Positions 5,076-6,970 of a stretch of 64,000 nt of DNA are shown in pieces. Location: the NCBI GenBank assembly GCA_963763075.1, contig CAVXNF010000006.1, forward strand, positions 1,278 through 65,277. The letters are read 5' to 3'. A model generated the notes under the pieces. It ran no database searches and was not told the DNA's origin. It worked only from the letters and a program-made list of their open reading frames with translations. The stretch comes from an uncultured Chloroflexia bacterium. Its GTDB lineage: Bacteria; Chloroflexota; Limnocylindria; Limnocylindrales; CSP1-4. The position numbers and the translations under genes were made by a program. Each line of letters starts with the position of its first letter. The stretch's first letter is position 1.

Positions 5076-5846
5076 ATGACCATCATCGTCCCCACGCTCC
5101 GCTGGGAACGCCCCCTGTGGCGGGATGGCGCGAGCCGCGTCGTGGGCGTGGACGAGGTCGGCGTCGCCCCCACCTCCGGCGCGGTCGTCGCCGCGGCCGT
5201 GATCATGGCGCCCAACTGCCACCGGATCGAGGGCGTCCGGGACTCGAAGACGATGACGGCGCTCCAGCGCGAGCGGCTGGCCCCGGTGATCCGGCGACGC
5301 GCGATCGCGGTCGGGGTCGGCGCGGCGTCCGTGGCCGACATCGACCGGCTCAACATCTACCACGCGACCCATCTCGCGATGCGCCGCGCGATCGCCCGCC
5401 TCGGCGGCCACGACCACGTCCTCGTCGACGGCAACCGGATCGCCGACTTCGAGCAGCAGGTCGGCCCGTACACGGCCATCGTCGATGGCGACGCCCGGGT
5501 GTACTCGATTGCCTGTGCCTCGGTTGTCGCGAAGGTCGTCCGCGACCGGATGATGGCCAAGCTCCACGCCCGCTACCCGGTCTACGGCTGGGAGCGCAAC
5601 CAGGGCTACGCGACGAAGGAGCACCGCGACGCGATCCGCGCCCACGGGCTCACGCCCCACCACCGCGCCTCGTGGCAGGCGATCCAGGTCCTGATGGCCG
5701 GCGACCAGCTCGGGCTGTTCGACGCGCCGGAGGAGGGGAGCGGCCTGCCGGCGGACGCGATCGGGGTCATGGACCCGGACGCGGCGGGCCTGCTGGCCGA
5801 CGAGGTCCAGGCGCTGGGCGACGAGGCCCTCGCCGCGATCGGCTGA
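5076..5846 (+). CDS. rnhB: Ribonuclease HII with C-terminal extension
   Basis: GVDEVG, RDSKTM, DRLNIYHAT, VLVDGN, IVDGDA..YSIACASVVAKVVRD, YGWERNQGYATKEH, HHRASW. Confidence 0.96.
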   Translation: MTIIVPTLRWERPLWRDGASRVVGVDEVGVAPTSGAVVAAAVIMAPNCHRIEGVRDSKTMTALQRERLAPVIRRRAIAVGVGAASVADIDRLNIYHATHLAMRRAIARLGGHDHVLVDGNRIADFEQQVGPYTAIVDGDARVYSIACASVVAKVVRDRMMAKLHARYPVYGWERNQGYATKEHRDAIRAHGLTPHHRASWQAIQVLMAGDQLGLFDAPEEGSGLPADAIGVMDPDAAGLLADEVQALGDEALAAIG

Positions 5847-6562: not shown

Positions 6563-6970
6563 ATGCCGTGGATGCAGCGAGCGACGAGCACCGCGGCGCA
6601 GCGCACCGGTGACGCGGCCGAGGCGCTGATCGCGAGCCGCCTGGAGGCCGCGGGCTGGACCATCCTCGCCCGCAACGTGCGGGTGGGCCGCGACGAGCTG
6701 GATCTCGTGGCGATCGACCCCGGGCCGCCGCGGGCGCTCGTCGTGGTCGAGGTGCGGCGACGCGGCCGGCGTGACTTCGGGTTCGCGGAGGAGACGGTCG
6801 ACCATCGCAAGCGCACGGCGCTCCGGCGTGCCGTGGCCACGCTGCTCGAGCGCGGCACGCTGCCCGACGGCCGGCCGCTGCCCGCGCTGCCGCTCCGGAT
6901 CGACCTCGTCGCGCTCGACGTGGGCCGGGACGGGCGGCCGTCGGTCCGCCACCACCGGGCGGCGATCTGA
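6563..6970 (+). CDS. yraN: YraN (UPF0102) PD-(D/E)XK-like protein
   Basis: [54 protein letters not shown]; syntenic with rnhB. Confidence 0.9.

Follow-up and report, generated by a model that had tools for sequence, protein, structure and literature searches.

The RNase HII encoded in the window, i.e. the 64,000-nucleotide stretch of DNA analyzed here (C6:1278-65277, taken from a 3.79-Mb assembly of 20 contigs rated 70.7% complete), carries the pentapeptide QLGLF shortly behind its catalytic domain. We propose, with a probability of roughly 0.7, that this peptide is a functional β-clamp-binding motif, which would tether RNase HII via an Ala-Gly-Asp hinge to DnaN for ribonucleotide excision. 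The initial annotation had read the peptide as a bacterial analogue of the PCNA-directed coupling of RNase HII/H2. Our comparisons support this reading, in which binding to DnaN and an effect on repair are what the sequence leads us to expect. No claim draws on the one genome that was flagged as unpublished.

The RNase HII gene and its C-terminal tail

The gene rnhB occupies positions 5076..5846 on the + strand and is an intact open reading frame of 256 amino acids plus stop. Profile searches with this ORF identified RNase HII over the whole catalytic body: the Pfam profile PF01351 (RNase_HII) matched residues 23-201 with an E-value of 6e-36, and the NCBIfam equivalog NF000595 scored 220.8 bits, the cut-off being 167. 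An independent database protein, also of 256 residues, shows 94% identity to the product along its whole length. The names given to near-identical database proteins assign the organism to Candidatus Limnocylindrales, phylum Chloroflexota. We modeled the protein with AlphaFold2 (AF2), using an input alignment of 87 sequences. The mean pLDDT was 90.3, with values of 92-99 over residues 1-200. [quoted passage not shown] The catalytic carboxylates (DEDD) are D26, E27, D118 and D139, and the junction-sensing Y178 is also present; D118, D139 and Y178 were invariant in the 87-sequence alignment, in which D26 and E27 varied only rarely. The core has a net basic charge (28 Lys/Arg vs 19 Asp/Glu). When the model was searched with Foldseek, the best match was E. 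coli RNase HII (7uwe_C; TM(target) 0.92, 42% identity), and other matches included T. maritima RNase H2 and archaeal RNase HII, among them the PCNA complex 3p83. The E-values ranged from 1e-20 to 1e-23 for 7uwe_C, 3o3g_A and 5y9p, and the value for 3p83_D was 8e-14.

It had been claimed in the initial annotation that QLGLF lies at 5706-5720 of the intact rnhB, in the peptide context AGDQLGLFDAPEE, and that it follows the catalytic domain within an acidic extension. All of this was reproduced. The codons CAG CTC GGG CTG TTC (5706..5720, + strand) encode Q211-L-G-L-F215, the coordinates are exact and the peptide matches the earlier quotation. The extension comprises the 49 residues A208-G256 and contains 11 Asp/Glu and no Lys, Arg or His. 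The candidate motif begins three residues past the final helix of the fold, near the start of this tail, and is joined to the last cap helix by the hinge A208-G209-D210 (5697..5705, + strand), which is 99-100% conserved in 117 close homologues. In the AF2 model, the pLDDT stands at 85-95 up to the motif, where it drops to about 58, a level kept over residues 211-220, compared to values above 95 in the core (residues 11-200); a short helix is drawn over residues 210-215. Both these values and the C-terminal position of the motif in other phyla (see below) place it in an accessible, disordered or terminal segment.

The remainder of the tail (residues 216-256, starting with D216; 5721..5843, + strand; pLDDT 57-70) is acidic and differs in length and sequence between genera. 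Two elements can be distinguished in it. The first, I229-G-V-M-D233 (5760..5774, + strand), is weakly conserved in the general form [I/V]-x-V-M-[D/A] and reads PVMADD in neighboring genera. The second is a predicted amphipathic C-terminal helix (residues 234-255; 5775..5840, + strand; AF2 pLDDT 63-70) that ends with ..DEALAAIG and has a moderately conserved end pattern, D..D.L..EA[LF]A..G (DEA[L/F]AA[I/V/T]G). We also considered that ..DEALAAIG might be a lineage-wide C-terminal tag; however, a position matrix run over the C-termini encoded by all likely coding ORFs in the genome recovered only RNase HII itself.

Clamp-binding motifs have been defined experimentally as Q-phi-x-[L/M]-[F/L] or Q-phi-x-[L/M]-x-[F/L], and acidic flanks have been described for the known ones (PMC11139829). 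QLGLF matches the first of these forms, and the very same peptide appears in the clamp literature. We take it to be the clamp motif of E. coli Pol II. A PIP box, Q-x-x-[L/I/M]-x-x-[F/Y]-[F/Y], was rejected, since Q211-L-G-L-F-D-A-P has Ala and Pro instead of the aromatic pair at positions 7 and 8, and the bacterial host encodes DnaN, not PCNA. A tail modeled with low confidence, acidic flanks and, in other phyla, a location often at the very C-terminus all fit what would be expected of a short linear clamp motif. In the protein studied here the motif is internal, being followed by about 40 more residues with two semi-conserved elements that clamp binding does not explain.

Occurrence of the motif in related and distant RNase HII

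Conservation in orthologues of the lineage had been set as a check by the initial annotation, and it was borne out in the genus, in the family and in a class-mate family. All 24 copies of the genus read AGDQL[G/S/A][L/M]F, while a 25th, from a two-contig assembly (G001), has an rnhB that is frame-shifted just past QL. Among 120 close database homologues (75-94% identity), 114 contain GDQLx[LM]F, and the six exceptions have QMx[LM]F, EQLGLF, or QLSLD/QLSFE forms with hexamer spacing. When the columns of 117 close-homologue tails were compared, A208 was conserved in 99%, G209, D210 and Q211 in 100% each, L212 in 98% and F215 in 97%; position 214 was Leu or Met in 99%, position 213 was free (Gly, Ser or Ala) and D216 was found in 78%. 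The rest of the tail was 15-45% conserved, with many gaps and a moderate rise only at the C-terminal helix, so the motif is conserved beyond its surroundings. In the 24 genus genomes, the Ala, Gly, Asp and Leu codons of AGDQL..F vary synonymously. Such codon turnover with fixed residues points to selection on the peptide, not on the DNA, and a DNA-level element under the motif was ruled out on the same grounds.

We then sampled the family with one genome per genus. In 30 of the 31 genera, RNase HII has a Gln-initiated penta- or hexameric peptide, Q-x-x-[L/F]-(x)-[L/F/W], at the same spot; only genus g8 has no motif at this place. Pentamers (QLGLF, QLDLW, QMSLW, QTELW) occur alongside spaced forms (QLDLDL, QLAFDL, QVSLDLF, QAPLPLF, QATLELV). 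Two RNase HII clades with a mutual identity of only about 43% exist in the family, and the motif is retained in both. It is likewise present in the class-mate family f3, where all four genomes have AGEQLSL[E/D]ML, QLPLDL or QLSLDL. The sister family f2, with streamlined genomes of 1.0-1.4 Mb (loci L026-L030), has a short RNase HII with neither tail nor motif, and its GRG site reads G-L-A; this would be a loss of the clamp-like peptide alongside genome reduction. The absence from g8 and from the whole of f2 means that the motif is dispensable. The remaining Chloroflexota families are mostly without it, with four of 44 matching the strict pattern, which makes the motif, within the phylum, a feature of this class.

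Compared at the level of sequence, the substitutions tolerated in the RNase HII of this lineage follow the grammar of clamp motifs: the Gln is invariant, position 3 is free, and penta- and hexamers interchange. Some of the variants are weak by E. coli standards, namely those with a final Trp or Val and those with Glu, Thr or Gln at position 2. A final Trp is also found in QLPLWG, which occurs in papers on the ImuB mutasome; Warner et al. are said to have reported it in 2010 as the clamp-binding motif of mycobacterial ImuB.

To see how widely the motif occurs, a cross-phylum sample was assembled with one genome per species. It comprised 80 named loci, 78 tails of which could be anchored, and the residues past the HRxxF anchor were scanned. 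The strict definition was matched by 17 of the 78 tails, compared to 1.46 expected from 2000 shuffles (maximum 6), an approximately 11-fold excess whose significance is overstated because related genomes are not independent, so that these counts are to be read as recurrence and not as a formal P-value. With a looser pattern, the count was 26 of 78 vs 4.5 expected from shuffling, and the same reservation applies. All ten Bacteroidota matched the looser pattern and six the strict definition (..QLSLF, ..QLKLDF, ..QLSFNF, ..QLELFPE); in relatives of Bacteroides and Capnocytophaga, ..QLSLF forms the C-terminus. The other matches came from most Gemmatimonadota, one Akkermansiaceae, one Myxococcales and scattered Pseudomonadota (Hyphomicrobium, Halomonas, Thiobacillus). 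For most of these proteins, only 0-2 residues separate the motif from the C-terminus. The clamp motifs of Pol II and Pol IV are likewise C-terminal. Firmicutes, Rhodobacteraceae and Erwinia in the named sample lack the motif, and RnhB of E. coli K-12 ends with ..HRRSFGPVKRALGLAS, in which there is no Q motif. Among representatives of 50%-identity clusters, matching tails were labeled by their sources as Armatimonadota (QLSLW) and Cyanobacteriota (QLGFGF). Going by these tails, the feature is not peculiar to the Limnocylindrales lineage and recurs in the RNase HII of several phyla.

The sliding clamp and the possible role of the peptide

The likely coding ORFs found in the genome itself comprise about 896,000 residues and contain QLx[LM]F only eight times. 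This corresponds to roughly 5e-4 for a 50-residue tail and is far from chance. Proteins of DNA metabolism account for three of the eight occurrences: one is in RNase HII, one in an ImuB-like protein of the Y family and one in a helicase, within its C-terminal region. The remaining five lie inside folded domains of transporters, of a threonyl-tRNA synthetase-like protein and of an IlvC-like protein, the last two assignments having been judged by eye from the flanks. In the ImuB-like protein, TQLPLFV is situated directly past the little-finger domain; the gene adjoins DnaE2, and the motif is kept as QL[A/G/P]LF in five family-mates. DinB, the gene of which is frame-shifted in this assembly, contains EQLELFE, and the DinB of a family-mate reads AAQLGLFDAAEE vs GDQLGLFDAPEE in our genome. 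Accepted clamp clients of the same genome thus have canonical motifs, and the peptide of RNase HII is of the same kind. In the clade whose RNase HII ends its motif with Trp (QMSLW, QLDLW), the ImuB-like protein has QL[AG]LF and DinB has QLGLF, QIGLF, QTSMF or QMSLL, so the Trp is not mirrored; with regard to a shared pocket preference, this comparison speaks neither for nor against.

The genome encodes its own DnaN (contig C12, about 107,100-108,250, minus strand), which has 29% overall identity to the E. coli clamp. At subsite I, seven of 12 residues are identical (R152, L155, R176, P242, V247, V360, M362) and L177I is conservative, a comparison that concerns the residues and not the geometry of the pocket. 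The changes found in the same comparison are T172A, G174N, H175Y and R246Q; with these four differences from E. coli, or five if L177I is counted, the pocket residues also provide a point against clamp binding.

Three further observations were made on these genes. The ImuB-like protein and a second DnaE (DnaE2-like) form a mutasome-like pair at C1:103501-109710 (loci L034 and L175). The helicase occurrence belongs to a stop-to-stop ORF at C5:366244-366978 (locus L036), which contains the end of Helicase_C and, about 60 residues later, GDQLSMFAA; the protein may be another clamp-motif client, and the ORF may represent the 3' part of a frame-shifted helicase gene. Finally, dinB and dnaE are both interrupted, each running through two or three reading frames (C11:17529-18900 and C8:116286-119870; loci L170, L174 and L176), indicating indel errors in the assembly, which may also explain the completeness of 70.7%.

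We envisage the following mode of action. The QLGLF peptide would dock in the hydrophobic pocket of DnaN, with the invariant AGD serving as a short three-residue hinge. Clamps left on newly made DNA would hold RNase HII beside the nascent strands, and the enzyme could sample the DNA threaded through, or adjoining, such clamps. It would then nick 5' of embedded ribonucleotides or of RNA-DNA junctions, and the nick would be passed to a clamp-bound polymerase.

The closest precedent is the RNase HII-PCNA complex of A. fulgidus (PDB 3P83; Bubeck et al. 2011), in which a helical cap is followed by the four-residue hinge SNLR and a C-terminal PIP box, QKTLDDF; PCNA binding stimulates this enzyme approximately 13-fold in a hinge-dependent manner (PMC3089482). 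The two proteins belong to the same family and share the arrangement of a cap, a hinge of three to four residues (SNLR vs AGD) and a Q-initiated hydrophobic clamp peptide. As with the PIP box of eukaryotic RNase H2B, the proposed logic is that a sliding clamp places the enzyme on nascent DNA, and with a clamp peptide of its own the RNase HII described here probably works from the clamp like its archaeal and human counterparts. They differ in that the PIP box ends the archaeal protein, whereas here a 41-residue acidic tail follows the motif, and in that clamp binding was shown for the archaeal enzyme, whereas here we infer it from the sequence. Given the bacterial QLxLF grammar and the absence of a PIP box, it is the DnaN dimer, not the PCNA trimer, that the peptide would be expected to bind.

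On the bacterial side, β-clamp clients with C-terminal or linker motifs include Pol II, Pol IV/DinB (QLVLGL), Pol V (QLNLF), Hda and ImuB (QLPLWG). The RNase HII peptide resembles these in motif definition, acidic flanks, disordered context and penta-/hexamer interchange; the putative client differs in being a nuclease acting on ribonucleotides, not a polymerase, a mismatch-repair protein or a ligase. Searching full-text articles for RNase HII or rnhB together with clamp terms turned up no account of RNase HII interacting with the clamp in bacteria, and RNase HII was not found in any list of clamp partners that we located. The words 'RNase' and 'ribonuclease' do not occur in the 2024 clamp review (PMC11139829), and a review from 2026 devoted to RNase HII and ribonucleotide excision repair covers the binding of PCNA in eukaryotes and archaea but mentions the bacterial clamp only as an aid to Pol I (PMC13492167). 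On the strength of its motif, RNase HII would thus join the β-clamp clients as the bacterial counterpart of PCNA-RNase HII, and no new principle would be involved.

The most serious of the alternatives, which we consider unlikely, is that the motif is a short linear motif for another partner (RNA polymerase, Pol I, SSB or YraN) and that its likeness to clamp motifs is coincidental. The E. coli enzyme is reported not to bind the clamp and works with RNA polymerase (PMC11253446), and its structure in that context, 7uwe, is our best fold match; Hao et al. 2023, as summarized in the same article, described its role in transcription-coupled ribonucleotide excision repair (PDB 7UWE). The two additional semi-conserved elements of the tail, and the fact that rnhB and yraN are neighbors and sometimes fused, could also speak for a different partner. 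However, the E. coli enzyme has no such tail and contacts RNA polymerase nonetheless. It is our closest solved catalytic body, with the same catalytic residues and the same junction-sensing Tyr, but it ends 11 residues past HRRSF (..GPVKRALGLAS), whereas in the protein studied here the hinge, the motif and the acidic tail follow and GRG is replaced by GVA. As E. coli RNase HII has no motif, its reported failure to bind the clamp is no true contradiction of tethering to DnaN. Penta-/hexamer interchange and a bias toward the very C-terminus are characteristic of clamp motifs, and near-identical peptides are found in accepted clamp clients of the same genomes. To our knowledge, no other bacterial partner recognizes Q-phi-x-L-(x)-F.

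Marginally less probable, in our view, is an intramolecular role: the motif would pack as a hydrophobic cap against the helical cap domain, or the acidic tail would cover the basic substrate groove and thereby cause auto-inhibition. The distance of only three residues from the last helix, the short helix at 210-215 in the AF2 model and the pairing of a strongly acidic tail with a net basic core would suit such a role, and C-terminal extensions of T. maritima RNase HII are cited as affecting substrate binding (in PMC13492167). It is difficult to reconcile with the fall in pLDDT exactly at the motif and with the enzymes of E. coli, of the Bacillus type and of most Chloroflexota, which fold without it. 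In addition, the distance between the HRRSF anchor and the motif ranges from 7 to about 20 residues, and hexamers can take the place of pentamers; a packing role would tolerate neither. A strictly conserved Gln is likewise unexpected in a hydrophobic cap. A functionless chance match would be conceivable in a low-complexity tail encoded by a high-GC genome, given that chance does produce short motifs and that acidic or Ala-rich tails are common in proteins of such genomes (e.g. S2 in the window), but near-invariance over 117 homologues with synonymous codon turnover and retention between clades of about 43% identity effectively exclude it, in line with the roughly 11-fold cross-phylum enrichment among genomes that are not independent.

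Returning to the tethering of RNase HII to DnaN, we can extend it only tentatively, at somewhat under even odds, to a widespread bacterial arrangement of clamp-coupled ribonucleotide excision. The tail would then sit at the same structural position in the RNase HII of all three domains, and the arrangement would cover Limnocylindria, Bacteroidota, Gemmatimonadota, parts of Verrucomicrobiota, Pseudomonadota and Myxococcota, and single clusters of Armatimonadota and Cyanobacteriota, the two main model organisms being without the motif. As part of the same tentative extension, the enzyme of our lineage would be further specialized by the loss of the central Arg from GRG and by the acquisition of an acidic tail in which two additional elements are conserved. 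Until the clamp is engaged, this tail might keep the basic DNA groove auto-inhibited; alternatively, it might bind a second partner.

Ribonucleotide incorporation is the most frequent replication error. If RNase HII is indeed tethered to the clamp, bacteria gain a replication-coupled route for removing ribonucleotides, and the transcription-coupled mode of E. coli is one solution among several. The short list of β-clamp partners would receive a new client in several phyla, and antibiotics directed against the clamp pocket would also disturb ribonucleotide repair in motif-bearing species. The lineage with the clamp-like peptide on RNase HII consists of soil and freshwater Chloroflexota, to which about a quarter of the cross-phylum sample (22-33%, depending on the pattern) would be added.

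The junction-recognition site and the neighborhood of rnhB

Comparison with homologues revealed that G29-V30-A31 (5160..5168, + strand) stands in place of the GRG junction-recognition motif; the first Gly is retained and the central Arg is lost. All 120 close homologues read VA after DEVG, as do most genera of the family. RG was found in 66 of the 79 named cross-phylum genomes in which this motif was read, and it is kept in the second RNase HII clade of the same family and in family f3. The role of GRG and of Arg22 has been described: the central Arg enters the minor groove and is called essential, and RNase HIII is without it (PMC13492167). By profile, fold and Tyr, the GVA protein is still an RNase HII. 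Backbone contacts may survive the loss of the Arg, and the substrate preference may be shifted.

A link of RNase HII to the replisome would also be explained if it were the sole RNase H of the cell. This was rejected, as RNase HI (PF00075) was detected in 23 of 25 other genus genomes; it was not found in our own assembly, which is 70.7% complete.

The gene order around rnhB is a PhzF-like gene (on the minus strand), rnhB, a gene for a DUF1269 membrane protein, yraN/UPF0102 and rpsB. The gene yraN (6563..6970, + strand; Pfam PF02021, E 2.5e-17) starts about 700 nt downstream of rnhB, with the DUF1269 gene in between. In other bacteria, RNase HII and YraN (UPF0102) are found fused (P0260, P0210 and P0218), and the linker of P0260 contains QLQLPL. 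The adjacency of rnhB and yraN and these fusions hint at a functional link between the two nucleases.
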